DNA of 19,425 nucleotides, taken from a virus. The position numbers and the translations under genes were made by a program. Positions 115 to 19,258 of this stretch are shown here, one piece after another. Positions within the stretch are counted from its first letter, which is position 1. Every line of letters starts with the position of its first letter. The DNA lies in IMG/VR virus record IMGVR_UViG_3300045988_170948, positions 1 to 19,425 of that record; one strand, given 5' to 3'. The notes beneath the pieces are model-generated. The model saw only the letters and a list, made by a program, of their open reading frames with translations. It ran no database searches and had not been told where the DNA came from.

Positions 115-115
115 T

Positions 116-2458
116 ATGGCTGAAGAAATTAAAAAAGTAATTAGTATAGATACTAAAACCAGTTCAAAGTCGATCAAGCAGCTACGAGAAGAAGTAGCTG
201 GCTTGACGGCTGAACTTGAAGATCTTGAGATTGGTAGTACTGACTATACTAAAAAGCTTGAAGAACTTGTTAATGTTCAAAATAAGTTAGGTGTTGCTAC
301 AGAATCTATGCAAGGTAAAACTGTAAATGCAGTTAAGGCGTTTGACAGTATCAATCAAGTAGCAGGAGGTTTAGCTGGAGGAGTTTCAGCTGTTAGTGCA
401 GCATTCACTTTATTTGGAAAAGATACAGAGAATCTTCAAAAAACTATGGTTAAATTGCAAGCAGCAATTGCCATAGTTCAGGGAATTGGAGGATTAAAAG
501 GTTTAGGTGAAGGTATTCTTAATGGAGTAAAATCATTTAAAGCCTTATCTGTGGCAATAACTGGTACATCAGCTGCTATGAATGGATTTAAGGCAGCATT
601 AGTATCAACAGGAATTGGTGCGCTACTTGTAGCAGTTGGTTTGCTTATAGATAAACTTACTTCATTAAAAGATGAAGCTAAATTAACAAGCGATGAAATA
701 GAAAATATTAGACAAAGGAATGAGAATTTAAGAACTCAAGCTAAAGAATCATTTTGAGAGGAGGAATATCGGAGTCTTATTAAATTAAATCCTGAATTAC
801 AAGATGAAATAGAGAATGTAATTAAAGCTACTGATGCATATAGGGAATTAAATAGAATAAGAACTGAAACTCAAAAAAAGGCTTGAGAAGAATATGATGC
901 TAAGATATTCTTGAATAATATTATAGAACTAGATAAGGCATTTAAGAATGCTCTAACTGCTTATGATAAAGATTTACTATCAATAGGTACAAGATTTGGT
1001 AAAACAGAAGAGGAAATCTCAGAATTATTTAAAAATACGTTATCTAGACAACAATTCTTAAAAAAAGTAACTGGGAAGGATGTAAAAGAAGCAAGATTAG
1101 AATTAGAAAGAATTTCTGAAAGTCTATTAGACAATAGTAAGTATTTAGCAGAAACTAAAGATCCTTTATATGATTACCAAAATCTTGTAAAAACAGGAAA
1201 TAAAATTCTTGAAGATAGAAAAAAAGCAGAAGAAGAAGCGGCAAGAGCTAGAAAACAGGCTTTAGATAAACTTCAAGATGAAATAAAAACTAAAAAAGCA
1301 GCCATTGATAAATATTGGTCTGATAATGAAAAAACTTTATTAAGTGAAACAGATAGAGAAAATTTAATTTTAAGAGAAAATTATCAGTTACAATTAAATG
1401 ATTTAAAATGGCTACTCGATAAAAAAGAATTAACTCAAGAGGAATATTTAAAAAGAGTTAAACAAGTAAATGATGCATATAATAAAGAATATTTAGAAGA
1501 TCAGAGAGAAATTTATAAAACAGAGCTTCAAGATAGATTATCTGCATTACAAGAAATGCAAGATAGGGAATCTCAATTATTTGCAAATAAAGAGGCTGCA
1601 TTATCTGCAGGTAAATCTGGAAGTTATGAAACTAGAGTTCAACAATTTGGTTCAACGGATTTCTATCAATCTAGAGAAGATGTTCAAAGACAATATCAAG
1701 ATACATTAGCTTATAATGAACAGTTATATAATCTTACCAAAGATAGAATTACAAGAGAGAATGAATTGATGTCTCAACAGCAAGCTATCTTAGATGAGCA
1801 ATATAATAATAAACTGATAACTGAACAAGAATATGCTAATCAATCTCAAGCAATCAAATTACAGCAAGAAGCTAATGATATAGCTTTATCAGAAGCAGCT
1901 AATGCAAGAGAAGAAGCAGATCTTCAAGCATTTAAAGATAGACAAGCTAAAAAGCAACAGGCTATTCAAGCTACTATGAATGTAGCTTCTTCTTTAAGTG
2001 GAGCTTTAGCTAATGTATTTAAACAAGAAGCTAGTGATGACAAGAAGAGTGAGAAACAGAGGGAGAAATCATTTAAAGTTTATAAAGCATTAGCTACTAC
2101 TCAAGCTATTATTGATACTATCAGTTCTGCCCAAGGTGCATATAAAGCTATGGTAGGTATTCCATTTGTAGGTCCTATCCTTGCTCCTATTGCAGCTGCT
2201 ACTGCTGTTATAGCTGGTATTGCTAATGTAAAAGCTATCCAAAATGAGCAGCTTCCTTCATCTGGAGGTTCTGGAAGTGATGCAGGAACTACTGCTCCTG
2301 CTGCTTTAAATACAGCTCCTGTAGAATATACTCGGAACTTACTTGGCAATAAAGAGACGGATCAATTGAATCAACCAGTTAAATGTTATGTAGTTGAGAG
2401 TGATATTACTACTGCTCAAACTAAAGTTGCAGTTACAGAATCAAATGCAAGTTTCTAA
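116..2458 (+). CDS. Tail tape measure protein (780 aa when TGA=Trp)
   Basis: ORF-track pieces 116-757 and 911-2458 share a frame and are joined through TGA 755-757 and TGA 884-886 with no TAA/TAG between them (..KESF-W-EEEYRSL..QKKA-W-EEYDAKIFLNN..). The protein has long Q/E/K-rich coiled-coil stretches plus Gly/Ala-rich hydrophobic segments (GGLAGGVSAVSAAFTLFG; IPFVGPILAPIAAATAVIAGIANV), which is typical of tape measure proteins. Ends in TAA. Confidence 0.75.
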
Positions 2459-2480
2459 AGTGAGTAAAATTTATGACACA
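2459..2480 (+). repeat. Degenerate copy of block 2 of the 49-bp intergenic element
   Basis: GTGAGTAAAATTTATGACAC resembles AGTGAGTAAAAATTTGACAC at 19224-19242. It lies directly after the tape measure stop and runs into the hairpin at 2479-2522. Confidence 0.4.
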
Positions 2481-2522
2481 CTACTATGTAAGTTGCTGAT
2501 TATCAGTGCTTATATAGTAGTG
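2479..2522 (+). terminator. Long imperfect hairpin, candidate terminator after the tape measure gene
   Basis: CACTACTATGTAAGTTGCTGAT-T-ATCAGTGCTTATATAGTAGTG forms paired blocks of 9+4+5 bp with one G:U pair and a small internal bulge. T-rich sequence follows (CTATGTCTATTTTATTTTT). Confidence 0.4.
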
Positions 2523-2525
2523 CTA

Positions 2526-2573
2526 TGTCTATTTTATTTTTATTATATAACCTAGTTGAGTAAAAACTTGACA
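2526..2573 (+). promoter_or_regulatory. Conserved intergenic element, copy A (candidate phage-specific promoter for the head module)
   Basis: TGTCTATTTTATTTTTATTATATAACCTAGTTGAGTAAAAACTTGACA aligns with copies at 11683-11731, 19193-19241 and 17446-17397 (-). It lies 79 nt upstream of ATG 2653 and has the same orientation as the downstream genes. Confidence 0.55.
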
Positions 2574-2652
2574 TTTGATAGTATACAAATATATAAAAAT
2601 AGAAGATTGTAACAATATTACATTTTTAAAATAGCTTATATATTAATAAAAA

Positions 2653-3243
2653 ATGGAAAAAATGTATAATGATCTTCCATTATATCAAGCAATTATTGCC
2701 GATGATTGTGATGGAATAGAGTTCGTAGCATTGACCAGTAAACCTGCAACCCAAGTTAATTGGCTTGCTTTTGGGGAATCTCAGAAGTTCTCGATGGATG
2801 AAGAAAAACATATAGTTACTTCTTGTTTAATGGTATGTGATATACCTATATTTAGACGGGATAGTAAAAACGGAGAATATTATATTCAATATGATAAAGA
2901 AACTCTCCGTTTAATGGCTGAAAAAATGATGTATGATAAGAGAACTACTGATGTAAATATTGAACATTTGGAAGATTCGGTAATTCCTGGAATAATTCTT
3001 CAAGAGCTATATATTAAAGATATAGATAGAGGAATTAATCCAGTTGAATTTGCTGATTGTCCAGATGGTTCATTATTTGCTACTTATAAAGTAAATAATC
3101 CTGTTATATGGGATGCAATTAAAGCTGGAAAGTTTAAAGGGTTCTCTATTGAGGGATTGTTTACTTTAGAAAGACAATCTGATGAATATGAGGAACTTAA
3201 AGAGATTCAAAAAATGTTGAGAAAAATAAAAAGAGTTAAATAG
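2653..3243 (+). CDS. Prohead protease, XkdF-like (putative)
   Basis: The N-terminal GIEFVALTSKPATQVNWLAFGE resembles the V-A-L-V-x-x-P-A-x-x-x-x-F-x-A-F signature I recall for the XkdF-type phage serine protease domain. The gene sits upstream of the scaffold and major capsid genes. Ends in TAG. Confidence 0.5.
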   Translation: MEKMYNDLPLYQAIIADDCDGIEFVALTSKPATQVNWLAFGESQKFSMDEEKHIVTSCLMVCDIPIFRRDSKNGEYYIQYDKETLRLMAEKMMYDKRTTDVNIEHLEDSVIPGIILQELYIKDIDRGINPVEFADCPDGSLFATYKVNNPVIWDAIKAGKFKGFSIEGLFTLERQSDEYEELKEIQKMLRKIKRVK

Positions 3244-3244
3244 A

Positions 3245-3856
3245 ATGTATAGTGGAGTTATATATCTAGCAACAAATCTTATAAATGGCAATAAATATGT
3301 AGGACAAACAAATAATTTCTTGAGAAGAAAGAATGAACATAAATACAGTTCTAATCTTACATATTTTCATAGAGCGATTAGGAAATATGGATTCAATAAC
3401 TTTAAATGGGAAATTCTTCAAATCTTTTGTTGTTCTTCTACAGAATTATTGAAAAGACAACTAAATAATGCAGAAATTAAATATATTCAGTTATTTGATA
3501 CATTAAATAATGGTTATAATTTAAATGAAGGTGGAGGTTCTAATACTGGATTTAAACACAGTGAAGAATCTAAACACAAAATGTCTTTAAAACAGTCTGG
3601 AAGAGTATTAAAGGATGAAACAAAATTAAAGTTAAGAGAATGTAGATTGGGAACTAAACAAACTGAACAGCAGAAAGAAAAAGTAAGTAAACGTATAATT
3701 ATGACAGATATTAATGATACTTATATATGCACTTGGAAATCTGCTATGGACGCTGAAAGAAACGGAAATTTTGATCATAGTGCTATTATAAAATGTTGCA
3801 AAAATAAACAAAACTATCATAAAAATTTTAAATTTAAGTATGAACAAATTAACTAA
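3245..3856 (+). mobile_element. Free-standing GIY-YIG homing endonuclease gene 1
   Basis: GVIYLATNLINGNKYVGQT (GIY..YVG), RRKNEH, AEIKYIQLF..NGYNLNEGG and a NUMOD3-like GFKHSEESKHKMS are present. The C-terminal tail is basic and looks DNA-binding. The gene is inserted between protease and scaffold, starting 2 nt after the protease TAG and overlapping the scaffold start by 17 nt. It has no in-frame TGA. Confidence 0.85.
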
Positions 3857-4451
3857 ACTGAGAATCGAACTTAGTAAACTCTTAGCAAAATTTAACGATG
3901 TTAAGACTAGTGCTGGAGTTCTAACTTACGATGGTAGTGAGGATGAGGATCTAAGGGCAGGTATGAGTGTATATACAATGGATACTGATACTGGCGAATA
4001 TGCACCTGCTGCTGATGGTGAGTATGTTACCGAAGATGGCAAAACGATTGTTGTTAAAGACGGTAAAGTAGAGTCCATTACTGATCCTAAAGCTGTAGTA
4101 GATCCTGAAGAAGACAGGACTGTTGAGGTTGATGCTGCTTGTGGAACTAAGAGAGTAAAAGCTGAGGAAGTTGCTGATCCTGCTGTTGAAACAGACGGTG
4201 TTAAAGAAACTGAGACTGATGCAATCGACGCTATTCATCGCGAAATTAATGAGCTCTATGATATTGTAGATAAGCTTGTTAAGAAAGTAGCAGAACTTGA
4301 AGGAAAGTCAGAAGCTACTGAAAAGACTGTAGAAAAAATGAGTAAGATGAGTGCTGCTTTTTCAGCAGAGGAAACACTCGAAAATAAAACAACTGCTCCT
4401 ATAAGTGGAATAGCAGAAATAGATAGAAAGCTTAAAAACTTTATTGGTTAA
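3840..4451 (+). CDS. Capsid scaffolding protein (putative)
   Basis: Acidic protein directly upstream of the major capsid gene. It carries a GEY..EDGKTIVVKDGKV motif and a C-terminal helical, coiled-coil segment (IHREINELYDIVDKLVKKVAELEGK). Confidence 0.55.
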   Translation: MNKLTKLRIELSKLLAKFNDVKTSAGVLTYDGSEDEDLRAGMSVYTMDTDTGEYAPAADGEYVTEDGKTIVVKDGKVESITDPKAVVDPEEDRTVEVDAACGTKRVKAEEVADPAVETDGVKETETDAIDAIHREINELYDIVDKLVKKVAELEGKSEATEKTVEKMSKMSAAFSAEETLENKTTAPISGIAEIDRKLKNFIG

Positions 4452-4472
4452 TTTATAAAATTTTAAATAATT

Positions 4473-5378
4473 ATGGCAAATAGTCCTGTAATGACAACTC
4501 TTCCTGCTTATGTGGAGCAAAGACGTCTCCCTCTTATTAAGGAAGCTGTTTTAAAAGCTAAGAGTGCAAGTTTGTTCAATCTTCAAACAGATATTAAAAC
4601 TGATGCTGCTCTTAACCTGTTATCTACCGATGTTCAGTTCGGTGATGGTCTTACTTGTGGTTGGGATGAGGCTGGAACTCAGACTCTTTCTCAGAGAATT
4701 CTTAAGACTGGTAATATTAAGATTAATATGGCATATTGCGATAAGGCTATGCTGAAATACTGGACTCAGTATGCAGTTAAGGTAGCCGCTGGTCAGAAGA
4801 CTCTTCCTTTTGAAGAGGATTTCGTAAATGCTGTTGTAGAGAACGTAAAAGAGGCTATTGAGGTAGCTATCTGGCAGGGTGATACGGCTTCAGAAACTAA
4901 TAACTTGAAGTATTTTGATGGTCTGCTTAAGATTCTTGCTGCTGATAATGGTACTGTAGATGTAACAATTGCTGGAACATCTGCCTATACTGACATTATG
5001 GCAGTTTATAATGCAATTCCTGAGAAGGTTCTGGATGGTGCTTCTATCTTAGTTGGTGCCGATATGTTCCGTAAGTTCGTAAATGAACTTGTTGAGAAGA
5101 ACTATTTCCACTATAGCGGAGAGAGCCTTAATGGTGAGATTTATCTTCCTGGTTCACAGGTTAAGGTTATTGCTGTTAATGGTCTTAATGGAACTGGTAA
5201 GATTGTTGCTGGTCAGTTAGACAAGAACTTCTTCTATGGTGTAGATATGATGAACGATGAAGAGAAATTCGAATTGTGGTATTCACAGGATTTCCGCGAG
5301 TTCAGATTAGCTATTGAATTTAACGCTGGTGTACAAGTTGCTTTCCCTGACGAAGTAGTATTAGGCGCCAAGGCTTAA
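4473..5378 (+). CDS. Major capsid protein (HK97-fold type)
   Basis: 301 aa, positioned after protease and scaffold. The N-terminal PAYVEQRRLPLIKEAV and the C-terminal NFFYGVDMMNDEEKFELWYSQDFREFRLAIEFNAGVQVAFPDEVV look like phage capsid family proteins. The four Trp visible in the quoted motifs (CGWDE, KYWTQ, AIWQG, ELWYS) are all TGG, and there is no in-frame TGA. Confidence 0.8.
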   Translation: MANSPVMTTLPAYVEQRRLPLIKEAVLKAKSASLFNLQTDIKTDAALNLLSTDVQFGDGLTCGWDEAGTQTLSQRILKTGNIKINMAYCDKAMLKYWTQYAVKVAAGQKTLPFEEDFVNAVVENVKEAIEVAIWQGDTASETNNLKYFDGLLKILAADNGTVDVTIAGTSAYTDIMAVYNAIPEKVLDGASILVGADMFRKFVNELVEKNYFHYSGESLNGEIYLPGSQVKVIAVNGLNGTGKIVAGQLDKNFFYGVDMMNDEEKFELWYSQDFREFRLAIEFNAGVQVAFPDEVVLGAKA

Positions 5379-5418
5379 TTTCAATAGATTTTATTAACTT
5401 ATAAATGATATTGAAATT

Positions 5419-5943
5419 ATGGCTTGTTTAATAACTATCGCAGGAATCACACTTGATTGCCAACCTTCATTAGGTGGTATCAAACAGGTTTGGATTACTC
5501 AGTATTCAGATGTTAAGAGTGTAACGGTTGATCCTGAGAGCAATATGATTTCAGCTATTACTCTTGAGTCTTCAGCTAAATGGTATAACTACCAATTTAG
5601 AAAGGCTACTGGTTCTCTAACCTCAACTTTAAATGTAGATGAAAGTGCTGGTGTTAATTATGTAAGTAATGAGCTTGCTCTTGTATTTACAAAGATGGAA
5701 ACAGCAAAACGAGTAGAGATTGCAGCTTTATCAATTGGTCAGCTTGCAGTTGTTGTTGAAGACAGCAATGGTAAGTATTGGTTCTTAGGTAAAGATGATT
5801 ATGTAAGCGCTTCCGCTGGTACGGGTGTTACTGGTACTGCTAAAGGTGATCAGAATGCTTATACTCTGACACTTTCAACAGATTCAGATTCTTATCCTTA
5901 TGAGTTATCTGCAGAAGCTATCCAAAGCGTTGTAGGTGCTTAA
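5419..5943 (+). CDS. Putative major tail (tube) protein or other abundant virion protein
   Basis: 174 aa. The pattern GGIKQVWI...F..A.....T.......G..Y....L.LVF.......R.....L...QLAVVVEDSNGKYWFLG resembles tail tube families I recall. A strong terminator follows immediately, as expected for a highly expressed structural gene. Confidence 0.4.
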   Translation: MACLITIAGITLDCQPSLGGIKQVWITQYSDVKSVTVDPESNMISAITLESSAKWYNYQFRKATGSLTSTLNVDESAGVNYVSNELALVFTKMETAKRVEIAALSIGQLAVVVEDSNGKYWFLGKDDYVSASAGTGVTGTAKGDQNAYTLTLSTDSDSYPYELSAEAIQSVVGA

Positions 5944-5953
5944 TAACAGAAAG

Positions 5954-5990
5954 AGGGGCGAGTATTAATTTACTTGCCCCTTATTTTGTT
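5954..5990 (+). terminator. Rho-independent terminator
   Basis: AGGGGCGAGTA-TTAATT-TACTTGCCCCT gives an 11-bp stem with one G:U pair, followed by TATTTTGTT. Confidence 0.8.
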
Positions 5991-6034
5991 TATATACCAC
6001 ATAATGAATAATTTATATTTTATAGAAAAATAAT

Positions 6035-8170
6035 ATGGCAAACGAAACTGAAAAGACAATTCTTCCCTATCTTAATGTCCTTGAAGTCGAAACAATAGAT
6101 AAGTCAAATGTGACTAAAGTTATTGTTATTGACAAGGATGATGAAGTTAAGGTTATGGATGGTTCTCAGTTAGGATCAAGTAACTATCAAGATCTTCAAT
6201 TTAAGCCTGAAATCAATGGGGTTGAATTAAATGGAAATATTCCTTCTAAAGAATTAGGAATTCCTTCTATTGAAGATATTGACAATCAAATTACAGAGAA
6301 ACTTATTGACTATCCAACTAAAGAAGAAGTTACTGTAGAAATAACTGAAGCTACTTCTGGCAAACAAGATATATTAGTTCAAGGTAATGGTATAGTAATT
6401 GAGGATAATACTATTTCAGCAGATTATTCTACAATTAATAATAAGCCATTTTTAAATGGAGCAGAGCTTATTAATCCTACAGTAATAGTTCCATCAATTC
6501 AGATTAAAGCTATCCCTGATAAAGTAACAATAGCTCCAATATTTGGAAATCAAACTGGAGACGCTGAAGAACTTCCTGTTTATAATACTGAAACTAATTC
6601 TGCAGGTCTAATTAATGCTGATTTATATGCTCAGTTATCAGATAAATATACAAAGGCTGAGATTGACAATCTAAATGCAGAAATTAATAAAGCTATAAAT
6701 GCAAAACAGGGAACATTAACGGCAGGAGCTAATATATCTATTGTTGATAATGTAATATCTGCATTCCAGAATCACTTCTTCTTAAATTTAGATATTAATG
6801 ATCCAGATAGACAGTTAGAAATATATAACTTCATTAGAAGTAATATGGACTTCTATTTATTTGGGCAGATTACATATAATGAAGATACAATAGTAGTTCC
6901 AATGACTGTAGTAGAGCATACTAATACTATTGATTTATATGGATACTATTTTAAAGATGATGGGGTATTAGTAACTATTAATGCTATTATAGTTAATAAT
7001 GGCCAAATGACTGTTAAGACCACAGAAGTTGATCTTACTAATAAAGGTTATACTAAAGATGAAGTAGATGAGAAACTTGCAACTAAGCAAGGTGTATTTA
7101 CTCCACAAGCTCCATTAGCTTTTAATGAAGATAAATCCCAATTATCTGTAGATTTATCTGGATACCAACCAGTTGGTGATTATGCTTTAAAGAGTGATAT
7201 TCCAACTAAAGTTAGTGAGCTTACTAATGATTCTAACTTTGTAACTGAAGCAGAGGTTTCTGGAGATTTAGCAGGTAAAGCAGATAAGACTTATGTTGAT
7301 GAGCAACTTGCTACTAAACAGCCTGTAGGAGATTATGCAACAAAAACTGAACTTGCTGGTAAAGCTGATTCTTCTGTAGTAGAATCTTTATCTACTCAAG
7401 TAGCAACTAATACTTCAGATATATCAATTATTAAAACAAAGCAAGAAGAAGATGGAGATAAGATTGATTCTCTTGATAAAGAGATGGCTACTAAGCAAGA
7501 TTTACTTGTAAGTGGAACTAATATCAAAACAATCAATAGTCAATCTTTACTTGGAGAAGGTAATATAGTAATTGATAGTGGTTCTAATATTCCATATCTA
7601 TTTATAAATTCCTCAACCCATCTTTCTGGAGATTTCGCTGCTGTTAAGAATGCTATAGCTAATAAAACACCATTTGAGCTTTATTATGTAAATATTCTAG
7701 GTTATGGTGATATAGCAGCTCCAGAAGTATGTTTTGTTTCAGGAGAAAATATTCAAGCTACTTTCCATTTTGAAAGTACGACAGCTAATCATACTGTAGT
7801 TCAAACTACTATTACTCCAACTGGAGTATCTGCTGATACTAGTTATCATAGTTATCAAGAACAGTTAGTTTCTGGTACTAATATAAAGACTATTAATGGT
7901 GAAAGTATTTTAGGAGAAGGTAATCTTGAAATATCTGGAGGTGGAGGGACTACTGACTATACTCAGTTAACAAATAAACCTCAGATTAATTCTGTTGAGT
8001 TATCTGGCAATAAGAGTTTATCAGATTTAGGTATTCAGCCTGCTGGAAACTATATTGAAGCTGGAACTGGAACCCAACCTCAAATAAATACGATTACTGT
8101 TCTAACTCAAGCAGAGTATGATAGTTTATCAACTAAAGATCCTAATACACAATATTTAATTGTAGAATAA
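6035..8170 (+). CDS. Tail fibre protein with internal repeats
   Basis: 711 aa. A repeated 24-aa motif L(L/V)SGTNIKTIN(S/G)(Q/E)S(L/I)LGEGN occurs at nt 7502-7573 and 7864-7933. Repeated KP.ING.EL.GN.....LGI and TK.EL..KAD motifs are typical of phage fibres. No TGA. Confidence 0.8.
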   Translation: MANETEKTILPYLNVLEVETIDKSNVTKVIVIDKDDEVKVMDGSQLGSSNYQDLQFKPEINGVELNGNIPSKELGIPSIEDIDNQITEKLIDYPTKEEVTVEITEATSGKQDILVQGNGIVIEDNTISADYSTINNKPFLNGAELINPTVIVPSIQIKAIPDKVTIAPIFGNQTGDAEELPVYNTETNSAGLINADLYAQLSDKYTKAEIDNLNAEINKAINAKQGTLTAGANISIVDNVISAFQNHFFLNLDINDPDRQLEIYNFIRSNMDFYLFGQITYNEDTIVVPMTVVEHTNTIDLYGYYFKDDGVLVTINAIIVNNGQMTVKTTEVDLTNKGYTKDEVDEKLATKQGVFTPQAPLAFNEDKSQLSVDLSGYQPVGDYALKSDIPTKVSELTNDSNFVTEAEVSGDLAGKADKTYVDEQLATKQPVGDYATKTELAGKADSSVVESLSTQVATNTSDISIIKTKQEEDGDKIDSLDKEMATKQDLLVSGTNIKTINSQSLLGEGNIVIDSGSNIPYLFINSSTHLSGDFAAVKNAIANKTPFELYYVNILGYGDIAAPEVCFVSGENIQATFHFESTTANHTVVQTTITPTGVSADTSYHSYQEQLVSGTNIKTINGESILGEGNLEISGGGGTTDYTQLTNKPQINSVELSGNKSLSDLGIQPAGNYIEAGTGTQPQINTITVLTQAEYDSLSTKDPNTQYLIVE

Positions 8171-8171
8171 T

Positions 8172-9293: not shown

Positions 9294-9295
9294 TT

Positions 9296-9532: not shown

Positions 9533-9534
9533 TT

Positions 9535-10194
9535 ATGATTATACTTAAGAATACTAAAAATACACAAACTTTCTATGTAAGTAAGAAATGTGGTATTGAA
9601 TCTGGACAACTTCCTGTTGGTTCTTATACTAAGATTGAAGCAGATGAAAGATTCCAACCTAAAGGTAATTACATTTCTGAAGAGAAAGCAGAAGAGTTAA
9701 TTAATACTAAAGTAACAGAAAGTATTGAAGATCAAGTTCCTCCTTTAGTAGATCAATCTATAGATGCTAAGCTTGTTCCAATTAATACTGAGATTACTAA
9801 TCTTAAAGGGGAAGTTGAGGAGTTAGAAACTTCTAAGATGGAAGTATTCCAAGCTAATCAACCTCTATCTTTACATAGAAATGGAGAAGGTTTGCAACTA
9901 TCTGTAGATTTAAGTAATTATGCAACTAAAGCAGAAATTCCTGATACTAGTGATTTTGCTACTAAAGAAGAGCTTACAGCTGTAGAGAATAAGATTCCTG
10001 ATGTATCTGGATTAGCTACTAAAGATGAAGTTGCACTTAAAGCAGATAAAAGTGAGTTATCAAACTATGTAACTACAGATGCATATAATACAAAGATGAC
10101 AGAGTTAGATGGAGAAATCTCAGCAATTCAAGCTCAGATTGGTAATATTTCAACTACTCTTGATACAATTAATGGTGAAATTCCAAATGAATAG
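9535..10194 (+). CDS. Tail fibre-like protein (coiled-coil and short repeats)
   Basis: Repeats [49 protein letters not shown] resemble those of the 711-aa fibre. The start sits in a TAA-TT-ATG junction. Ends in TAG. Confidence 0.6.
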
Positions 10195-10708
10195 AGTATT
10201 AACAAATTATCCTAACTATAGTGTATCTTCTACAGGAGATGTATATAGTAACCCATTGACTTTTAAAGATTCTATTGGAAGAACCAGAAAACAAATACAT
10301 AAAAAGCTAAAACAGCATATAGATAAATATGGCTATAATTATGTAATTCTAGTATCTGGCTTAGATAAACCTAAAGCTATTAAAGTTCACAGACTAGTAG
10401 CAGAAGCATTTATTCCAAATCCTGACAATCTACCATATGTTAACCATATAAATGAAAATAAGACAGATAATAGGGTAGAAAATTTAGAATGATGTGATGC
10501 AAAGTATAATAATACATATGGAACTAGAATAAATAGATGTATTGATAAAATTAGTAAACCTGTAGGGCTATTTATTAATGATTTACTAGTTAAAACATAT
10601 AAAAATGCAATTGAAACATCAATAGATGGGTATACTCATAGTAGAGTTATAGATTGTCTTAAAGGAAGAACAGACACTTATAAAGGGGTAAAATTTAAAT
10701 ATATCTAA
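10187..10708 (+). mobile_element. Free-standing HNH homing endonuclease gene (NUMOD4-like N-terminus plus HNH_3-like core)
   Basis: [21 protein letters not shown] followed by [37 protein letters not shown](10490-10492)-CDAKYNN. The TGA sits exactly on the Trp of the conserved NLEW motif. The frame continues to TAA 10706-10708. The gene overlaps the upstream fibre gene by 8 nt. Confidence 0.85.
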
Positions 10709-10709
10709 T

Positions 10710-11678
10710 ATGGCAAATACAATTTCTGATAAATTAACGTATCTTGAAGGTACTAAAAGTGCCATTAAAGATGCTATTGTAGCTAAAGGTGTTGCTGTAT
10801 CAGATTCAGATACCTTTAGAAGCTATGCAGATAAGATAGGACAGATTTCTGGAGGTGGTGGAGGAAAGATTAATTTAAATGATTATGGATTAACATTTGC
10901 ATATTCTAGTATGACACAAGAGCAATATAATAATATAGAATATTCTCTTCCAGATAATATAAATCATTGATTTGATGGGACTAATTTCATATCTACAATA
11001 GATATATCAAGTCATATTGATCTGTCTAAAGTATATGACGCATCATATGCCTTCCAAAACACATATAATATATATATTGATAATATAAGAACTAGTGTTG
11101 GGGATTCGTACGCATTTTCTGGATTTCAAGGCATACTAAATAATTTAGAATTAATTAATACCTTATCCTCTAGTTGAAATTATGCAACAAGAACATTCTT
11201 TAATGCTTCTAATTTACCAACTACTTTAAAAGTGATAAATGAAGTTGATACTGGTGTATCATCTTTACAATTTTTCTTTTATTCTGTTAGCAGTAATGTT
11301 CCTGAAATTGAAGTTATTAATGGACAACTATCTTTATATTATTACTTTAGTGCATATAATGAGGGTGTTACAACAGTAGGAAAAATTAAATTAAATAATT
11401 GCACATTAACAGAAGATCTAAATAAAACTTCAATATGTGCATCTGCTAATACTACTGTTACTTATTTTGGGGGTGTTGAAGGAGCTGATAAAAGTATGAA
11501 TTTAGCAAATTTTAGAGCACTAAATAGTCAATCAGTAACTGATATTATTACAAATGTTAGTGATTTAACTGGAAAGGATACCAAAACTTTAACTTTTTAT
11601 ACTAACGTTTATAATGCACTTACTGAGGAACAGAAATCATTAGCTACATCTAAAAACTGAACTTTAGCATCAGCATAA
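10710..11678 (+). CDS. LRR-type receptor-binding candidate 2 (322 aa, three TGA=Trp)
   Basis: ORF-track pieces 10710-10970 and 11232-11660 share a frame and are joined through TGA 10968, 11175 and 11658 with no TAA/TAG. The N-terminus ISDKLTYLEGTKSAIKDAIVAKGVAVSDSDTFRSYADKI is a common fibre N-terminal motif. The C-terminus LTEEQKSLATSKN-TGA-TLASA aligns with ..SKN-TGG-SI of 8172-9293. Confidence 0.7.
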
Positions 11679-11682
11679 TTTT

Positions 11683-11731
11683 TGTCTATTTTTATTTTTT
11701 CTTAGTACTTTGAGTGAGTAAAAACTTGACA
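11683..11731 (+). promoter_or_regulatory. Conserved intergenic element, copy B
   Basis: TGTCTATTTTTATTTTTTCTTAGTACTTTGAGTGAGTAAAAACTTGACA starts 4 nt after the upstream TAA and ends 103 nt upstream of ATG 11834. Confidence 0.55.
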
Positions 11732-11758
11732 TTAAAGGAGGCTTAGGTCTCCTTTAAT
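11731..11758 (+). other. Perfect 10-bp hairpin abutting element copy B (5' leader structure or terminator)
   Basis: ATTAAAGGAG-GCTTAGGT-CTCCTTTAAT. The first base is the last A of TTGACA. It is followed by TATTTTAAT. Confidence 0.5.
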
Positions 11759-11803
11759 TATTTTAATACATTAGTAAATTGGTTTATATTTTAAGAAAAA
11801 GAT

Positions 11804-11832
11804 ATGTAAAAGTAATGTAAAACTATGTAAAA
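11804..11832 (+). repeat. Three tandem ATGTAAAA units (start-stop minicistrons) directly upstream of ATG 11834
   Basis: ATGTAAAA occurs at 11804-11811, 11815-11822 and 11825-11832, spaced 11 and 10 nt apart. Confidence 0.6.
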
Positions 11833-11833
11833 T

Positions 11834-12226
11834 ATGAATTATACTTTATTAATGCAAAATACAACTACTAAAGAAGTTTATACATTTGATCTTGAAAATC
11901 AGAATTATTCTGAGAATATCTACTATAAGTTTGATATTACACTTCAAGAAGGAATGAGAGACGGTGAATATCAATATATTTTATTTACTAATCCAAATAA
12001 ATTTCAAGTTATAGTTGATGTAAACAATCCATTTAGATCAGAGTTATATGGCAATCCAGTTATTCTGGTTACATATAATAATACTCTTACTAATGGTACT
12101 CAGATATTAGTTGCTGGTAAACCAATACCTATATTGGGAACAGGATTAATAAGAATTGGAGATTATGAGAATAATAATTATCAATACGACAAATCTAATA
12201 CATACGTAAGTTATGAGCGAAAATAA
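11834..12226 (+). CDS. Hypothetical protein (130 aa)
   Basis: Intact ORF ending in TAA, and the first gene after element copy B. No recognisable motif. Its end overlaps the portal start by 14 nt. Confidence 0.5.
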   Translation: MNYTLLMQNTTTKEVYTFDLENQNYSENIYYKFDITLQEGMRDGEYQYILFTNPNKFQVIVDVNNPFRSELYGNPVILVTYNNTLTNGTQILVAGKPIPILGTGLIRIGDYENNNYQYDKSNTYVSYERK

Positions 12227-13304
12227 AACAAAAGTTCAGTTAAGTGCTATTGATCCATTTATTGCAAGTAATATCGTATTACCTACAGAAACTAAAGTAA
12301 GAGGAAAAGATTATGTAATGTGGGGAGAAGATAACAAATATCCATTATATCTATGAGATTTATACTTAAATGTTGCTACTCTCCAATCTATTATTAATGG
12401 TTCTGCTGACTTTATTGTTGGTAATGATGTTAAATGTAATGCTCCAGGATTTGAAGTAGTTGTAAACAAGAAAGGTGAAACAATAGTTGATATAATGAGA
12501 AAAATCACTATTGATAAGATGATATTTGGAGGTTATGCTATCCAAGTAATTAGAGATATGCTTGGAAGAGTTGCAGAGATCTATCATATTGATTTTATGA
12601 ATGTAAGGTCAAGCGAAAAGAATGATATATTATATTATGCAACTGATTGGACAGCTTGGTCTGTAAAAGCTATAAAATATCCAAAATTTGGAGCTGCTGA
12701 TGAAAATCCAGCTAGTATATTTTATAATAAAGGTTATATAACAAGAGGAGTATATCCTATTCCTGTTTATGGAGCTGCTATTTTATCTTGCGAAACTGAG
12801 AAAAATATTAATGAATTCCATTTAAATAACATCAATAATGGATTTATGGGTAATCTTATTATTAACTTTAATAATGGGGAACCTACAGATGAAATTAGAG
12901 AGGAGATTGAGAGGAATATTAATGAGAAGTTCTCTGGTTATCAGAATGCTGGCAGAATATTGATTTCATATAATGCAGATGAGGCAAATAAGACTACTAT
13001 TGAAAGATTAGATTCTGATGATTTTGATGAGAAATATCAATCGTTATCTGAGAGAACAAGAGATCAAATATTCTGTGCCTTCAGAGCTAATCCTTCGTTG
13101 TTCGGTTTAAACTATAGCTCAGGATTTAATGAAAATGAGTTTAATGAAGCATTTAAGCTATATAATCGTACTTTTGTACGCCCAATACAATCAGAAATTT
13201 GTGACTCATTTGATAAAATCTTCGGCATTAAGAATAGTATTACTATTGAACCATTTAGTTTAACTCCAAAAGGAATGTCAGACAATGCAGAAAATGTTGA
13301 ATAA
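12213..13304 (+). CDS. Portal protein (364 aa, one TGA=Trp)
   Basis: ATG 12213 is in frame with ORF-track 12495-13304 through TGA 12354-12356. MSENKTKVQLSAIDPF...VMWGEDNKYPLYL-W-DLYLNVATLQSIINGSADFIVG together with FHLNNINNGFMGNLIINF matches the N-terminal and core pattern I associate with phage portal proteins. Confidence 0.7.
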
Positions 13305-13947
13305 TTATACAGTGTACTGCCATAAGAATATAGCTGATAATAAATTATATTTTGGAATAACATCACTTACTTTAAATAATAGATGGGGAACTAAAGGTCA
13401 AGGTTACAAGAATAATCTTTATTTTAGCAGAGCAATTAAAAAATATGGTTGAGATAATTTTGAGCATATTATAATTAGAGATAATCTTCCAGAAGCTTGT
13501 GCTAAGACTTTAGAAAAGATTCTGATTTATAAGTATAATACTAGAAATCCAAAATATGGGTATAATTTAACTGATGGAGGAGACGGTACTTGTGGATATT
13601 CTTTTTCACAAGATTATAAAGATAGTCTTAGAATTATAAGATCAGGAGAAAATAACTCATTTTATGGTAAACAGCATTCAGATGAAAGCAAGCGTAAAAT
13701 GAGGGAGGCAAGATTAGGCAAAACTCCTTGAAATAAAGGTATGAAACTCTCAGATAAAGAAAAACAACTAATTTCAGAACGTCAGTGCAAAAAAGTATAT
13801 AAGTATGATTTAGATGGTAATTTTATTTGTGAGTATAAATCAGCTAAGGAAGCTGGAGAGAAGAATAATGTAGATTCTTCTAGTATATCTAGATCTTGTA
13901 GAAAAAATAAACCCTGCAAAAATTATAAATATTATTATGGAATATAG
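13294..13947 (+). mobile_element. Free-standing GIY-YIG homing endonuclease gene 2 (two TGA=Trp)
   Basis: MLNNYTVYCHKNIADNKLYFGITS (GIY..YFG); AIKKYG-TGA(13450)-DNFEH; LEKILIYKYNTRNPKYGYNLTDGGDG; NUMOD3-like HSDESKRKMREARLGKTP-TGA(13729)-NKG. The gene overlaps the portal end by 11 nt and the next gene's start by 11 nt. Confidence 0.85.
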
Positions 13948-14614
13948 AAATGTACTATTAATATCTGAAGATTATATAAAATCAGAATCCAATTTAGACA
14001 ATAATGTTTCTGGTAAATATCTTCAGTCAGCAATTAAACTTGCACAAGATATTGAGCTTCAGTCATTAATTGGAACTAAGCTCTTAGAAAAGATTCAGAA
14101 ATTAGTAATTGATTGAAAAGACCCAAATAAACCAGTTCATCCAATAGAACCTCCTATTTATGATCCTACTTCTATAGATGACCCAGAAAATCATAGATAT
14201 AAAGAATTGCTAGATTACTATATTCAGCCTTATTTACTTTATCAAGTATTAAGTGAGATTACTATACCTATTTCGTTTAAGCTTAGTAACTTTGGTGTTA
14301 TGAGGACTGATGATGAGAAAGATTTAACTTCTGATATTAATCAAGTTAATCTTATTAAGAAATATTATAGAGATAAAGCAGATTTCTTTAAAACAAGATT
14401 ACAAAATTGGGTAATTACATATTATAATGATTTTCCTGAATTGTATTCTTATAAACCTCTTAAAGATATGTATCCAAATATGTATTCAAGTTCATCTTGC
14501 ACTATTTGGTTAGGTGGAGCTAGAGGTAAAGGTTGGAGATATAATTCTTGTGAAGGTCCTCTGCAAAGAGCTTATGATTTCCCTTCAAGTGATAACAATA
14601 AAAAGAGTAAGTAA
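13937..14614 (+). CDS. Putative head-tail connector/adaptor protein (225 aa, one TGA=Trp)
   Basis: ATG 13937 is in frame with ORF-track 14207-14614 through TGA 14114-14116. The N-terminus ISEDYIKSESNLDNNVSGKYLQSAIKLAQDIELQSLIGTKLLEKI resembles head-tail adaptor N-termini. The position after the portal gene supports this. Confidence 0.4.
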
Positions 14615-14615
14615 G

Positions 14616-15041
14616 ATGACGTATTTTGAATTAATAAACAATTTAAAAGCTTGTGCTCTTGAAGAACCCAATATTAATTTTGTAGGAAGTAAGGATATAT
14701 ATGAACTTAATAGTATCCCAACTATTGAATATAATGTATTTTATATAACTCCAAATACATTTAATATGGATGAGGATACTATTACTTACTCTTTAAATCT
14801 CTATTTTATAGCAAGATGGGATGAGACTGATAATAATCAGCTTGAAGAGCAATCAGCTGGAATATTAGCATTAACTAATATAATTAACCGATTTAATAAC
14901 CAATATCCAGAAGTTGATATTTCTTATCCTTTAATTTTTACTCCATTTTATCAGAAGTTCAAAGATATTTGTACTGGAATATTTGTTAGAGTTGATTTAG
15001 CTGTAGACAACACTCTGGGTACTTGTTCTGATAATATGTAA
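14616..15041 (+). CDS. Hypothetical virion or morphogenesis protein (141 aa)
   Basis: ATG 14616 lies 2 nt after the upstream TAA. The ORF-track start at 14514 would overlap the previous gene by 100 nt. No motif recognised. Confidence 0.5.
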   Translation: MTYFELINNLKACALEEPNINFVGSKDIYELNSIPTIEYNVFYITPNTFNMDEDTITYSLNLYFIARWDETDNNQLEEQSAGILALTNIINRFNNQYPEVDISYPLIFTPFYQKFKDICTGIFVRVDLAVDNTLGTCSDNM

Positions 15042-15694
15042 TGGAAAATAAATTAAACTGGTTTGGAAAGGTATTAGAATGAGTAGATAAATATGGACTG
15101 TGGAAAATAATTAAAGGTGGATTTGGATTTATATTTATTTCTTATGTAATAATTATAAGTACTAATCCAGGAATAATATATGATAAAGTTGTAAGTTATA
15201 TAGAAACAGTTCATAATACTAATCAAGTAATACGACAAGAAGCAGATCTTAAGGTTAGATATATTCTTAAAGATCTTTTAAATGATACGAATGCAGATAG
15301 AGCTTGAGTTATTGAGTATCATAATGGCACTTCAGGATTAGGAGGACTTCCATTCACTTATGGAATTATGAATAGTGAAGAAACAGAACCTGGAGTTGCT
15401 CCAGTTTCAAGTCATTATAAAGACTTCCTATTATCTGATTATTTATTTATATTAGAAACATCTAAAAAAGGAGGATGATTTGGAGATGTTGAAGATATAA
15501 AGGAATTAGATAGAAGAATGTACTATACATTTAAATCTAATGATGTTAATAAGATTGCAATATTCTATTTAAAATCAGAAGATAGAGATATTGGAATTTT
15601 AGGCTTATCTTATTGTGATAATGAGATGCCAGTTGATACTTGAGTAAAACTAAGAGATGCAGGAATTAAAGTAAGTATAATTTTAAATAAATAA
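15041..15694 (+). CDS. Membrane-anchored protein (217 aa) with four TGA=Trp codons; possible GAF-like globular domain; first gene of the lysis cassette
   Basis: Absent from the ORF track because TGA at 15080, 15305, 15476 and 15641 splits it into pieces under 60 aa. It begins at a TAATG junction with the upstream gene and ends in TAA 15692-15694. It has one N-terminal hydrophobic helix (GGFGFIFISYVIIISTNPG). The C-terminal part (ADRAWVIEYHNG...KIAIFYLKSEDRDIGILGLSY) loosely resembles a GAF fold. Confidence 0.65.
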
Positions 15695-15697
15695 GTT

Positions 15698-15859
15698 ATG
15701 AAATATTGGATGAAATATTTAATAGCAATAGTAATTATAATCTTAGTATTTTTAATGGTAAAAGTAATTCCATTTTGGATTACATTAGTACTCATAGCAC
15801 TTGGTGCAGGATGTCATTTATTTTACCGTTATACTATGCTTAAAGATATTATTAAATAA
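15698..15859 (+). CDS. Holin candidate (53 aa, two TM helices)
   Basis: MKYWMKYLIAIVIIILVFLMVKVIPFWITLVLIALGAGCHLFYRYTMLKDIIK has two hydrophobic helices and a charged C-terminus. It lies directly upstream of the endolysin and shares a TAATG junction with it. Confidence 0.55.
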   Translation: MKYWMKYLIAIVIIILVFLMVKVIPFWITLVLIALGAGCHLFYRYTMLKDIIK

Positions 15860-16308
15860 TGAAATATTTTACTATTAGTGAATTAACAAGATCTGATACA
15901 GCTTCTATTAAGAAGATAGATAATACTCCAAATAAAGAGATTACTGAACACCTTATAGAGTTAGTCGAGAAACTTTTAGACCCATTAAGAAGTGATTGGG
16001 CAGAGTATTGTGATGTTAATCGGTTGGGAAATCCAGCAATAAGTGTGAATTCAGGTTATAGATGTAATAAGCTTAATAAAGCTGTAGGAGGATCTTTGAT
16101 ATCTGCTCACCTAACAGGATATGCGGCAGATATAATTCCAAGTAACGGCCAAATGAAAGAATTTCAGGTTTGGATTACTGAAGCTATTGAAAAGTATGAT
16201 TTTGACGAATGCTTTATAGAAAGAAGTAGTACTGCTCACTGAGTGCATATTGCTTTATATAGTATTAAAGGATTACAACGAAGAAAGAAAGGTAATTTAT
16301 ATGTATAG
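15859..16308 (+). CDS. Endolysin, zinc peptidase M15 (Peptidase_M15_3-like), one TGA=Trp
   Basis: [28 protein letters not shown] matches the SxHxxGxAxD metallopeptidase core. The frame continues through TGA 16240-16242 (STAH-W-VHIALY) to TAG 16306-16308. Confidence 0.85.
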
Positions 16309-16891
16309 TGTATATGTTCATTTAAACAAGATTAATGGTAAGAAATATATTGGAATTACTTGTAAGAAGCCAGAGATACGATGGGCAAACGGTCTTGGCT
16401 ATAGAAAACAGCCATTTGAAAATGCTATTAAAAAATATGGATGAGATGGATTTGAACACATTATAGTTAAAGAAGGATTACCAGAAGCTTGTGCTAAAAC
16501 ATTAGAGAAGATTCTTATTTATAGATATAATACTCGTAATCTGAAATACGGTTATAATGCTACAGACGGAGGTGATGGCACATTAGGAATTACATTTACT
16601 CAAGAAAGAAAAGACAAGATAAGAGCTAAAAGTATTGGAAGACATCCATCAGAAGAAACTAGGAAAAAGATGAGTGATAGCCAGAAAGGAAGAGATTTGA
16701 GCTATTTAAATAATTCTTTTGGCAATAATCCAAGAGCTAAGAAAGTAGGTGCATATAAAGATGATATTCTTATTAAAGAATATGATTGTGCAGTTAGTGC
16801 TTCTTTAGATGTCGGAGTTCATAAAAATTCTATTGCTAAAGCAATTAGAGAAGGTTATAAAGTAAAAGGATTCAAGTGAAGATATGTTTAA
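16301..16891 (+). mobile_element. Free-standing GIY-YIG homing endonuclease gene 3 (two TGA=Trp), paralogue of gene 2
   Basis: [20 protein letters not shown]; AIKKYG-TGA(16442)-DGFEH; LPEACAKTLEKILIYRYNTRNLKYGYNATDGGDG; ..KVKGFK-TGA(16877)-RYV then TAA 16889-16891. It overlaps the endolysin end by 8 nt. Confidence 0.85.
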
Positions 16892-16899
16892 TAAAAAAG

Positions 16900-16926
16900 A
16901 AAAGGAGGGCAAATAACCCTCCTTTT
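16900..16926. terminator. Bidirectional rho-independent terminator between convergent modules
   Basis: AAAAGGAGGG-CAAATAA-CCCTCCTTTT gives a perfect 10-bp stem. An A-run lies on the left and a T-run on the right. It sits between + strand stop 16891 and - strand stop 16930. Confidence 0.85.
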
Positions 16927-16929
16927 TGT

Positions 16930-17070
16930 TTATTCCATTATCTCAAATAATTTCTCATCTTTAGGTATTAATTCTCCTGTTTGTAAGTCTACTAAAAACT
17001 TACTATTTTCTGGTATTACATATACATAATACACTCCATTTATACATACTTTATAGGTTTGGTATTTCAT
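16930..17070 (-). CDS. Small hypothetical protein (46 aa)
   Basis: MKYQTYKVCINGVYYVYVIPENSKFLVDLQTGELIPKDEKLFEIME*. The ATG lies 1 nt after the upstream stop. The ORF is too short for the ORF track. Confidence 0.4.
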   Translation of the reverse strand: MKYQTYKVCINGVYYVYVIPENSKFLVDLQTGELIPKDEKLFEIME

Positions 17071-17071
17071 A

Positions 17072-17212
17072 TTAATCAGTATATGTTGCATTAGTAATTT
17101 CTGGTTTTGGCATTTCTTCTACTTCTTCCCAAACTAAACCTCTATTCTGGTTTTCTAGTTGAACTATTCTGTATTCTAGTTCTTCAAGCTTTTTAAATAA
17201 ATGATCATCCAT
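17072..17212 (-). CDS. Small hypothetical protein (46 aa, coiled-coil-like)
   Basis: MDDHLFKKLEELEYRIVQLENQNRGLVWEEVEEMPKPEITNATYTD*. It is tightly packed, 2 nt after the upstream stop. Confidence 0.4.
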   Translation of the reverse strand: MDDHLFKKLEELEYRIVQLENQNRGLVWEEVEEMPKPEITNATYTD

Positions 17213-17214
17213 AA

Positions 17215-17376
17215 TTAATCAAATTTAGAAATAAACATATAATCTTTATTTTTTAATACTTTATCTATAATATCACCAAATCTTTTAGTAGCCTCTTTAC
17301 ATTCGAGCATTCATTTATCCAATTCTTTAATATACTCTTCTGTTTGTTTTATTGTTTCTTTAATATCACTTTCCAT
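17215..17376 (-). CDS. Small hypothetical protein (53 aa if TGA 17313-17311 is Trp; otherwise 21-aa and 31-aa ORFs)
   Basis: MESDIKETIKQTEEYIKELDK-W-MLECKEATKRFGDIIDKVLKNKDYMFISKFD*. The ATG lies 21 nt downstream of element copy D. Confidence 0.4.
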
Positions 17377-17396
17377 AATTAAAATATTTTAATAAA

Positions 17397-17446: not shown

Positions 17447-17448
17447 TA

Positions 17449-19167: not shown

Positions 19168-19192
19168 AGTTGTAATAATTTTGGTTATTAAT

Positions 19193-19241: not shown

Positions 19242-19258
19242 CCTTAATGTTAAAAAGT

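Follow-up and report, generated by a model that had tools for sequence, protein, structure and literature searches.

TGA as a predicted tryptophan codon in a family of small human gut phages without a recognisable suppressor tRNA

Introduction

Bacteriophages that read TGA as tryptophan (Trp; genetic code 4) were reportedly described by Ivanova and colleagues in 2014. Accessory genes of the code change, those for release factor 1 (RF1) and tryptophanyl-transfer RNA (tRNA) synthetase (TrpRS), are seen in a few Jade phages. Among gut phages, TGA-to-Trp recoding is documented but rare, with 46 UHGV viral operational taxonomic units concerned (PMC11210395); experimental validation in the literature surveyed is confined to code 15 (PMC9523058), and several clades mix codes according to Borges et al. 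(10.1101/2021.08.26.457843). The subject here is a stretch of 19,425 nucleotides (positions 1 to 19,425 of the IMG/VR record IMGVR_UViG_3300045988_170948; termed the window), in which 19 in-frame TGA codons had been assigned to Trp by a sequence-only reading. The phenomenon as such, TGA-to-Trp recoded gut phages, is already known, and the window represents an apparently undescribed family within this known kind.

Results

All 19 TGA codons pointed out by the sequence-only reading are present, and each is in frame with the flanking open reading frame (ORF) fragments of translation table 11. Eighteen are located on the + strand, starting at 755, 884, 8385, 10490, 10968, 11175, 11658, 12354, 13450, 13729, 14114, 15080, 15305, 15476, 15641, 16240, 16442 and 16877, while one occupies 17313-17311 on the - strand; together they are spread over 11 genes. 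Upon read-through the six apparent non-coding gaps named before vanish and a near-contiguous + strand gene train extends from 116 to 16891, the junctions of which are overlaps or gaps of a few bases with the exception of a 155-nt gap at 11679-11833. The - strand carries three small ORFs and a gene for a 572-amino-acid (aa) protein at 17449-19167. Every gene ends with TAA or TAG and none needs TGA as a stop, in agreement with the earlier claim, with the ORF count being 25 and not 26.

Comparison of translation tables, based on greedily chosen ORFs no shorter than 70 aa, raises the coding density of the window from 0.73 under code 11 to 0.89 with TGA as a sense codon, with almost no gain (0.78) in the control with TAG as sense. 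In the most fragmented part, 8172-16891, the corresponding values are 0.56, 0.91 and 0.63. The genes are equally restored by code 4 in the 98%-identical complete relative IMGVR_UViG_3300045988_094921 (from 0.64 to 0.90) and in the loci of the recoded family (from 0.70-0.83 to 0.91-0.96); code 25 yields an ORF structure identical to code 4. Pfam domains continue uninterrupted across the TGA codons in HNH_3 (aa 92-135 when the ORF is taken in its longer version, residue 128 being encoded by TGA), Peptidase_M15_3 (aa 3-131, likewise residue 128), NUMOD3 (aa 128-164, residue 149) and the GIY-YIG domains of two paralogues.

The identity of the encoded amino acid is borne out as Trp by several types of alignments. 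In nucleotide-only alignments with relatives 12 of the 18 + strand sites are polymorphic, and TGG accounts for 109 of the 113 non-TGA alternatives, TAA or TAG for none. When TGA was replaced by X in tblastn queries and subjects were translated in code 11, the aligned codons were TGA 107 times and TGG 56 times, with glycine (Gly) codons at 0 of 71 non-TGA positions; code-4 tblastn gave Gly codons in 5 of 158 non-TGA cases, all five at a single site. The non-TGA alternatives are TGG first, followed by phenylalanine (Phe) and tyrosine (Tyr) codons, which occur in more distant copies in the code-4 search.

With respect to individual motifs, the masked query places TGA 10490 (NLE-W) of the HNH endonuclease on the W of NLRW in I-HmuI (PDB 1U3E). 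TGA 16240 in TAH-TGA-VHI of the M15 peptidase falls on Trp in 23 of 23 full-length homologues, within an xWxH motif and at identities down to 43%; one of these homologues, P0101, translates correctly under table 11. The histidine (His) two residues further on is conserved, and we take it to be probably the third zinc ligand of M15 peptidases. A PDB sequence search with the lysin gave an alignment that stopped short of the TGA column. At the portal site YPLYL-TGA-DLY (12354) the relatives have TGG 41 times and TGA twice, and the internal control also holds, as the paralogous ...SKNW tails use TGG at 9270-9272 and TGA at 11658-11660. The suggested Trp motif GKTP-TGA-NKG of NUMOD3 turned out to be weak: I-TevI has a serine in this column, so 'PWNKG' is not a universally conserved Trp position, and site 13729 is TGA in all relatives aligned. 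The - strand codon 17313-17311 is TGG in divergent relatives; a stop/restart pair was considered and rejected for this position, where several relatives have ATA, not ATG, following TGA. At the tape-measure sites 755 and 884, where the coiled-coil sequence aligns poorly, code-4 tblastn gives TGG in 5-6 relatives, but masked and nucleotide alignments show no TGG. Stored gene calls of relatives give W where these TGA codons lie and cannot be translated with table 11. Collectively, the alignments show each of the 19 in-frame TGA codons to be a sense codon with the meaning of TGG. They are found in essential genes, namely portal, tape measure and endolysin genes in the window and terminase and large tail protein genes in the complete relative.

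The genes and elements of the window are as follows (coordinates, strand, description).

116-2458, +, tape-measure-like protein of 780 aa (PHROG tape-measure families); TGA 755 and 884, joined only under code 4
2653-3243, +, head maturation protease, Peptidase_S78_2/XkdF-like (Pfam, PHROGs); TGA-free in the window
3245-3856, +, GIY-YIG/NUMOD3 homing endonuclease (Pfam), TGA-free copy with F where the paralogues carry TGA
3840-4451, +, scaffold-like acidic coiled-coil protein between the protease and capsid genes; no TGA
4473-5378, +, major capsid protein candidate of 301 aa (PHROG virion structural protein; 57 related loci); TGA-free
5419-5943, +, 174-aa virion-module protein; TGA-free
6035-8170, +, repeat-rich tail fibre/tip protein of 711 aa with a Phage_tail_C domain; zero Trp codons
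8172-9293, +, 373-aa protein; TGA 8385 (relatives: TGA 20, TGG 1), C-terminal ...SKNW with TGG
10187-10708, +, HNH/NUMOD4 homing endonuclease (Pfam HNH_3); TGA 10490 (relatives: TGA 28, TGG 1)
10710-11678, +, 322-aa paralogue of the 8172-9293 protein; TGA 10968, 11175 and 11658 (relatives at 11658: TGA 37, TGG 3)
12213-13304, +, portal protein (Pfam Phage_portal); TGA 12354
13285-13947, +, GIY-YIG/NUMOD3/NUMOD1 homing endonuclease (Pfam); TGA 13450 (relatives: TGA 29, TGG 4) and 13729
13937-14614, +, DUF6712 protein (Pfam); TGA 14114 (relatives: TGG 23, TGA 19)
15041-15694, +, 217-aa protein with a hydrophobic N-terminal stretch; TGA 15080, 15305, 15476 and 15641, three of the four TGA/TGG polymorphic
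15698-15859, +, holin-like membrane protein of 53 aa (from sequence); TGA-free
15859-16308, +, Peptidase_M15_3 endolysin (Pfam); TGA 16240, two codons before the His conserved in all full-length homologues
16301-16891, +, GIY-YIG/NUMOD3 homing endonuclease (Pfam); TGA 16442 (relatives: TGA 23, TGG 8) and 16877 (relatives: TGA 19, TGG 1)
16899-16927, no strand, bidirectional terminator hairpin (terminator scan) dividing the + strand gene train from the - strand genes
17215-17376, -, 53-aa ORF; TGA 17313-17311
17449-19167, -, superfamily 2 (SF2) helicase-like protein of 572 aa, two RecA lobes and a C-terminal domain; TGA-free, 5 TGG
19259-19277, -, guanine-plus-cytosine (GC)-rich hairpin and T-run in the helicase gene's upstream leader
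19315-19346, -, promoter motif of Bacteroidota type, TTTG-N20-TAtaTTTG, upstream of the helicase gene
19393-19423, -, second Bacteroidota-type promoter motif, TTTG-N19-TAtaTTTG, further upstream

The 711-aa tail protein contains internal repeats, with SGTNIKTIN present twice, and a 219-aa coiled-coil protein at 9535-10194 has no Trp codon of either kind. The paralogues at 8172-9293 and 10710-11678, which lack a Pfam or PHROG match and share a C-terminal LT(D/E)EQKSL..SKNW tail, may be receptor-binding or fibre-associated proteins. Free-standing homing endonucleases are numerous, with three GIY-YIG/NUMOD3 and one HNH enzyme in the window and two more HNH and a T5orf172 protein in the complete relative, and their presence and position, for example beside the portal or DUF6712 genes, vary among the close relatives L087-L101. 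Site 16877 in one of them is TAT or TTT in more distant copies (code-4 tblastn). Database lysin entries of 127-129 aa end exactly at the TGA codon and lack the conserved His; such code-11-truncated entries are P0033, P0046, P0063, P0244 and P0247, some of them named 'YcbK (DUF882)' or 'putative chitinase'. The 572-aa protein, for which Pfam, PHROGs, NCBIfam and PDB sequence searches returned nothing, is identified as an SF2 helicase by its predicted fold, the AlphaFold model (predicted local distance difference test score, pLDDT, 82.6) matching DEAD-box, UvsW and Mfd helicases in Foldseek.

With respect to the whole genome, queries with the capsid and 572-aa proteins retrieved 79 IMG/VR loci, mostly ~30-kb contigs from one large collection, and European Nucleotide Archive (ENA) record names label the samples of relatives as human gut metagenomes. 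The complete relative (31,673 bp) matches most of the window at 95-99% identity and is circularly permuted relative to it; therefore, the genome is circular or terminally redundant, and the window covers ~60% of a circularly permuted genome, ~30-32 kb in size, that belongs to an uncultured tailed human-gut phage. Genes of this relative that lie outside the window code for a large terminase, for two HNH endonucleases and a T5orf172 protein, for a split sigma-like pair, and for three tail proteins of large size (726, 1118 and 919 aa). Nearly all of these genes carry TGA, some with up to 10 TGAs and with products reaching 1118 aa. The sigma-like pair consists of overlapping small ORFs (13894-14202 and 14186-14440 in the complete relative, likewise 14652-15189 in L099) that resemble extracytoplasmic function (ECF) sigma-70 region 2, weakly (E = 8e-4), and region 4/HTH_50 (E = 5e-8), and from these similarities might represent a phage sigma factor, split or frameshifted, that serves late transcription. 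Neither an integrase nor a polymerase is present in any family protein scanned. IMGVR_UViG_3300045988_175865 (148,631 bp; L077 and L030), considered as host DNA, proved to be a ~5-fold head-to-tail concatemer with a 29,846-bp period and not a prophage flanked by host sequence, and L099, a 193,455-bp ENA scaffold with phage-only genes in a 20-kb stretch, is probably a concatemer, too.

All relatives with at least 71% capsid-protein identity are recoded. The standard code is found in L037 (IMGVR_UViG_3300029905_000019; capsid identity 66-68%) and in more distant relatives. L037, the nearest standard-code relative (GC content 0.28) and employed as the outgroup, has no TGA, neither as sense nor as stop codon, in its 22 genes and may, given this small sample, be a TGA-free intermediate. 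The distant loci L080 and L081 (capsid identity 48-50%) are TAG-recoded, with a tRNA(CUA) in L080 at 8781-8868. Together with L097 and L098 they constitute a TAG-recoded set, which includes another phage with a homologous M15 lysin and has densities of 0.85-0.96 with TAG as sense vs 0.54-0.80 under code 11. The wider lineage therefore comprises codes 11, 15 and 4, and its code has changed more than once. INPHARED contains no match for the whole window (megablast) or the capsid protein (tblastn), and the terminase is less than 30% identical to that of any INPHARED phage, with no cultured relative there.

The use of TGA is partial. As had been noted before, TGG is the commoner Trp codon, with 38 TGG vs 18 TGA in the main set of 22 genes (19 TGA including the small - strand ORF), equivalent to a TGA share of 32% in the window; the share in the family is 37%. 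For the remaining two-fold NNA/NNG codon pairs of the window the NNA fraction is 0.67-0.90, from which a TGA share of ~75% would be expected, and in Mycoplasma phages of equal GC content TGA reaches 0.77 (MAV1) and 0.95 (P1) in nearly every gene. The proposal that partial usage is nearer to recoded gut phages than to native code-4 systems is consequently supported (32% vs 77-95%). Between relatives TGA changes to TGG at 0.34 vs 0.11 for AAA to AAG, and TGG to TGA at 0.05 vs 0.22 for AAG to AAA, counts that are not phylogenetically independent; TGA sites have G in the other genome three times as often as AAA or GAA sites, and A is found opposite TGG sites four times less often than opposite AAG sites, so that flips lean to TGG.

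TGA use is also gene-specific, with a Fisher test p = 0.001 for the contrast in the window alone. Tallies of TGA:TGG over unique family sequences are as follows.

Capsid protein, 0:143 (36 unique sequences)
Scaffold, 0:24
174-aa virion protein, 1:89
Protease, 4:51
Holin, 0:31
SF2 helicase, 1:81 (17 unique sequences)
Portal, 20:130 (0.13)
Terminase, tail proteins, lysin and homing endonucleases, TGA fraction 0.3-0.8

Other family genes have TGA fractions of up to 1.0 (range 0.3-1.0). The earlier restriction of recoding to the late region is too narrow: recoding is found there, but TGA also occurs outside the late genes, and several late genes, those for capsid, scaffold, holin and the 174-aa virion protein, are essentially without TGA. 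In the complete relative TGA is carried by the terminase, tail and homing endonuclease genes, by the gene for T5orf172 and by a small ORF which follows the helicase gene directly downstream and shares its strand. A simple model of standard-code early and recoded late genes fits poorly, because TGA is avoided in those late proteins that are most abundant but used in this small ORF. The capsid module (window 4001-6000), which is the TGA-free block, has a GC content of 0.375-0.384 vs 0.24-0.33 elsewhere; selection on codons in genes with high expression could be the cause, or else an exchange of modules with phages of the standard code.

Concerning the decoding machinery, ARAGORN detected no tRNA in the window, the complete 31.7-kb relative or any recoded-family locus, the tRNA(CUA) of L080 being the only one in 102 fetched loci (1.5 Mb). 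Relaxed settings (lower score thresholds, introns allowed) gave poor candidates, none with a UCA anticodon at the 85% threshold. One candidate, a 'tRNA-Cys(aca)' at 19251-19333, was dismissed as a terminator-like hairpin with an all-A:T acceptor stem. An Rfam search of both the window and the complete relative had no hit at E <= 1, and Pfam, PHROGs and NCBIfam revealed no release-factor or TrpRS/synthetase domain in a scan that the 1118-aa and 919-aa tail proteins of the relative lay outside. The complete relative has ~1.8 kb of intergenic DNA, the largest stretch of which folds no better than shuffled sequence (z = +2) and holds a small ORF. The sequence-only reading had considered that the lack of both a suppressor tRNA(UCA) in the phage and a code-4 host would speak against recoding. 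A tRNA(UCA) was indeed not found in the window, complete relatives or other family loci, and recoding is not overturned by this finding because a suppressor (Sup-TCA) tRNA has been found in only 15-35% of code-4 phages (PMC11210395; 10.1101/2021.08.26.457843), a low detection rate explained, as suggested by Borges et al., by undetected non-canonical tRNAs (10.1101/2021.08.26.457843). Absence of a suppressor tRNA is typical of code-4 phages.

Several features of the sequence provide clues to the host. A Shine-Dalgarno (SD)-like 4-mer precedes 1 of 25 genes (4%) vs 36-40% in Mycoplasma phages, A occupies position -3 in 19 of 25 genes, and A-richness is also seen at -13 and -15. TTTG-N17-23-TAnnTTTG has only two matches in the window, both shortly upstream of the helicase gene and on its coding strand. 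This motif pair is present in 20 of 20 family loci holding the region (45-fold enrichment), with conserved -33 and -7 elements and varying spacers, and all but one of these loci have a third motif further upstream on the opposite strand; matches to sigma-70-type promoters are not enriched. TAnnTTTG/TTTG promoters and SD-less A-rich leaders are features of Bacteroidetes (PMC7366714). A single-domain M15 endolysin and a holin, as judged from their sequences, would imply a walled host with peptidoglycan. Cellular homologues of lysin and helicase adjoin Phage_int_SAM_5 integrases, one of them in the chromosome of Hymenobacter sp. J193. In this chromosomal island (L102, JAJONE010000001.1 3670405-3692156) the homologue is 46% identical to the phage SF2 helicase and lies beside a Hachiman-like defence pair (HamA and a helicase), a Phage_int_SAM_5 integrase and a DDE transposase. 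Considering the promoter and SD signals, the endolysin and the under-use of TGA, the host is likely a standard-code, cell-walled bacterium, and most likely a member of the Bacteroidota.

Discussion

The window probably derives from a TGA-to-Trp recoded phage of a standard-code, presumably Bacteroidota host, in which UGA is read without a recognisable phage tRNA. UGA would be efficiently decoded during infection by a factor that the phage does not encode as a recognisable tRNA, with a host-encoded tRNA able to read UGA, or the host tRNA-Trp(CCA) reading UGA once release factor 2 (RF2) is neutralised, as candidates; a CCA variant of tRNA-Trp with a 4-bp anticodon stem has been described elsewhere (PMC13092985). 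The phage genes, all ending with TAA or TAG, would be readable by RF1 alone. Selection would exclude TGA from those virion genes that are expressed most highly, and also from the helicase, taken as an early replication gene, because decoding of UGA is proposed to be slower or leakier than that of UGG. TGA avoidance in these genes points to a decoding cost and not to a simple early/late switch.

Some observations weigh against this interpretation. With TGA also outside the late genes (T5orf172 and the small ORF after the helicase gene), a sharp change from the standard code early to code 4 late is not seen. Proteins of up to 1118 aa with 10 TGAs need near-complete read-through, which is hard to reconcile with a standard-code cell devoid of a phage suppressor. 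A leaky read-through context was considered; UGA-C is depleted, not enriched, in counts that are not phylogenetically independent. The promoter and SD arguments for the host are indirect, and the scan of genome contigs gave only distant capsid relatives on short contigs and in metagenome-assembled genome bins of inconsistent taxonomy (Bacillales, Bacteroidaceae, Lachnospiraceae, Chitinophagaceae and Methanosphaera).

Among the alternatives, those that dispute the meaning of the codon fare worst. TGA as Gly (code 25) in a phage of Absconditabacteria or Gracilibacteria would account equally well for the ORF structure, and phages of this kind exist (PMC10746230), but Gly codons are absent among the 71 alternatives of the masked search and restricted to one site in 5 of 158 cases of the code-4 search, the sites showing instead TGG followed by Phe and Tyr codons and, in HNH and M15 proteins, conserved Trp columns; this leaves code 25 a vanishingly small probability. 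Hardly any credence can be given either to the TGAs as true stops, be it in a decaying or pseudogenised genome or by assembly errors, or as isolated read-through or selenocysteine sites. While table 11 does give ORF fragments and lysins of 127-129 aa exist in databases, identical sites are found again in dozens of assemblies made independently from different samples, protein conservation persists beyond every site, a stop at 16240 would delete the conserved His, and TGA and TGG are freely exchanged among relatives at 19 sites in 11 genes. On this sequence evidence code 25, pseudogenes and sequencing error can be considered excluded as explanations.

The alternatives that concern the decoder share the Trp assignment. 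A host using code 4 itself, belonging to the Mycoplasmatales, an Eggerthellaceae-like recoded lineage or another unrecognised gut bacterium, would be mirrored by a phage that needs no suppressor. Such a host would agree with complete family genomes devoid of tRNA, release factor and TrpRS genes, with TGA in most genes on both strands at up to 10 per gene, and with no gene needing TGA as stop; low-GC code-4 gut bacteria are still turning up (10.64898/2025.12.01.691617), and many tRNA-less table-4 phages may share the code of their host, as suggested by Cook et al. (PMC11210395). We nevertheless regard it as unlikely, since TGA makes up 32-37% of Trp codons against 77-95% in Mycoplasma phages and ~75% expected, its exclusion from capsid (0:143) and helicase (1:81) genes is unexpected for an ordinary codon, the M15 endolysin speaks against a wall-less host, and Bacteroidota-type promoters and the near absence of SD motifs are unlike Mycoplasmatales or Actinomycetota. 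Moreover, surveys list no code-4 Bacteroidota (PMC13092985; 10.64898/2025.12.01.691617), and the code-4 Eggerthellaceae reported are from equid and non-human primate stool, whereas the present family is from the human gut. A phage-encoded suppressor in the form of a non-canonical tRNA (split, permuted, intron-containing or armless) or a small RNA missed by ARAGORN and Rfam seems quite improbable. Undetected tRNAs of this kind have been proposed by Borges et al. (10.1101/2021.08.26.457843), the complete relative offers ~1.8 kb of intergenic DNA, and the distant TAG-recoded L080 does have a tRNA(CUA); on the other hand, Rfam was empty at E <= 1, no UCA candidate appeared at the 85% ARAGORN threshold with the sole window candidate being a terminator-like hairpin, and the largest gap of the relative contains a small ORF and shows no fold superior to that of shuffled sequence.

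A bolder extension of the preferred interpretation, TGA-to-Trp recoding in a standard-code host, is conceivable but doubtful, namely that a ~30-kb, tRNA-less family of ~40 genes reassigns UGA to Trp in standard-code Bacteroidota without any phage suppressor tRNA. A small phage protein would inactivate RF2, whereupon host tRNA-Trp would read UGA and RF1 terminate at TAA and TAG; alternatively, the phage would rely on a host tRNA variant reading UGA. If true, the few genes of unknown function would make the family tractable for identifying the missing code-switch factor of code-4 phages without suppressor tRNA.

With respect to annotation, ~1/4 of the genome appears non-coding under table 11, and code 4 is needed for correct annotation of the family, truncated lysins (127-129 aa) of which are already contained in public databases. 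What the family contributes is over 50 related contigs, circular genomes in complete form and probable Bacteroidota expression signals as well as close neighbours with the standard code and TAG recoding; the small size of its genome and the lack of a tRNA are useful properties, too.

Compared with the code-4 gut phages described by Borges et al. (10.1101/2021.08.26.457843) and Cook et al. (PMC11210395), the present family shares in-frame TGA at Trp positions, low density under table 11 and partial use, with structural and lysis genes recoded and some genes kept in the standard code. Shared as well are close standard-code and TAG-recoded relatives, a small genome comparable to the ~34-kb Garnet and Amethyst clades, and the lack of a detectable suppressor tRNA, which applies to most published phages of this type. 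Different are the absence of suppressor tRNA, RF1 and TrpRS, with no integrase seen, and the nature of the TGA-avoiding genes, which are not simply early but include capsid, scaffold and holin genes. With the Zeta crAss-like phage Lera (PMC12386605) the family has in common a probable Bacteroidota host in the human gut, ~30% GC and TGA as Trp in terminase, structural and lysis genes; crAss-like phages are, however, far larger, and Lera has 26 tRNAs including Sup-TCA, in contrast to ~30 kb and no tRNA here. The Mycoplasma phages MAV1 and P1 likewise use TGA as Trp at ~27-29% GC with TAA and TAG as the only stops and no need for a suppressor tRNA. Neither of the two has an annotated endolysin, while the present family possesses an M15 endolysin beside a holin-like gene; their SD-like motifs precede 36-40% of the genes vs 4% here, and TGA makes up 77-95% of their Trp codons in nearly every gene, as opposed to 32% and gene-specific avoidance in the window.

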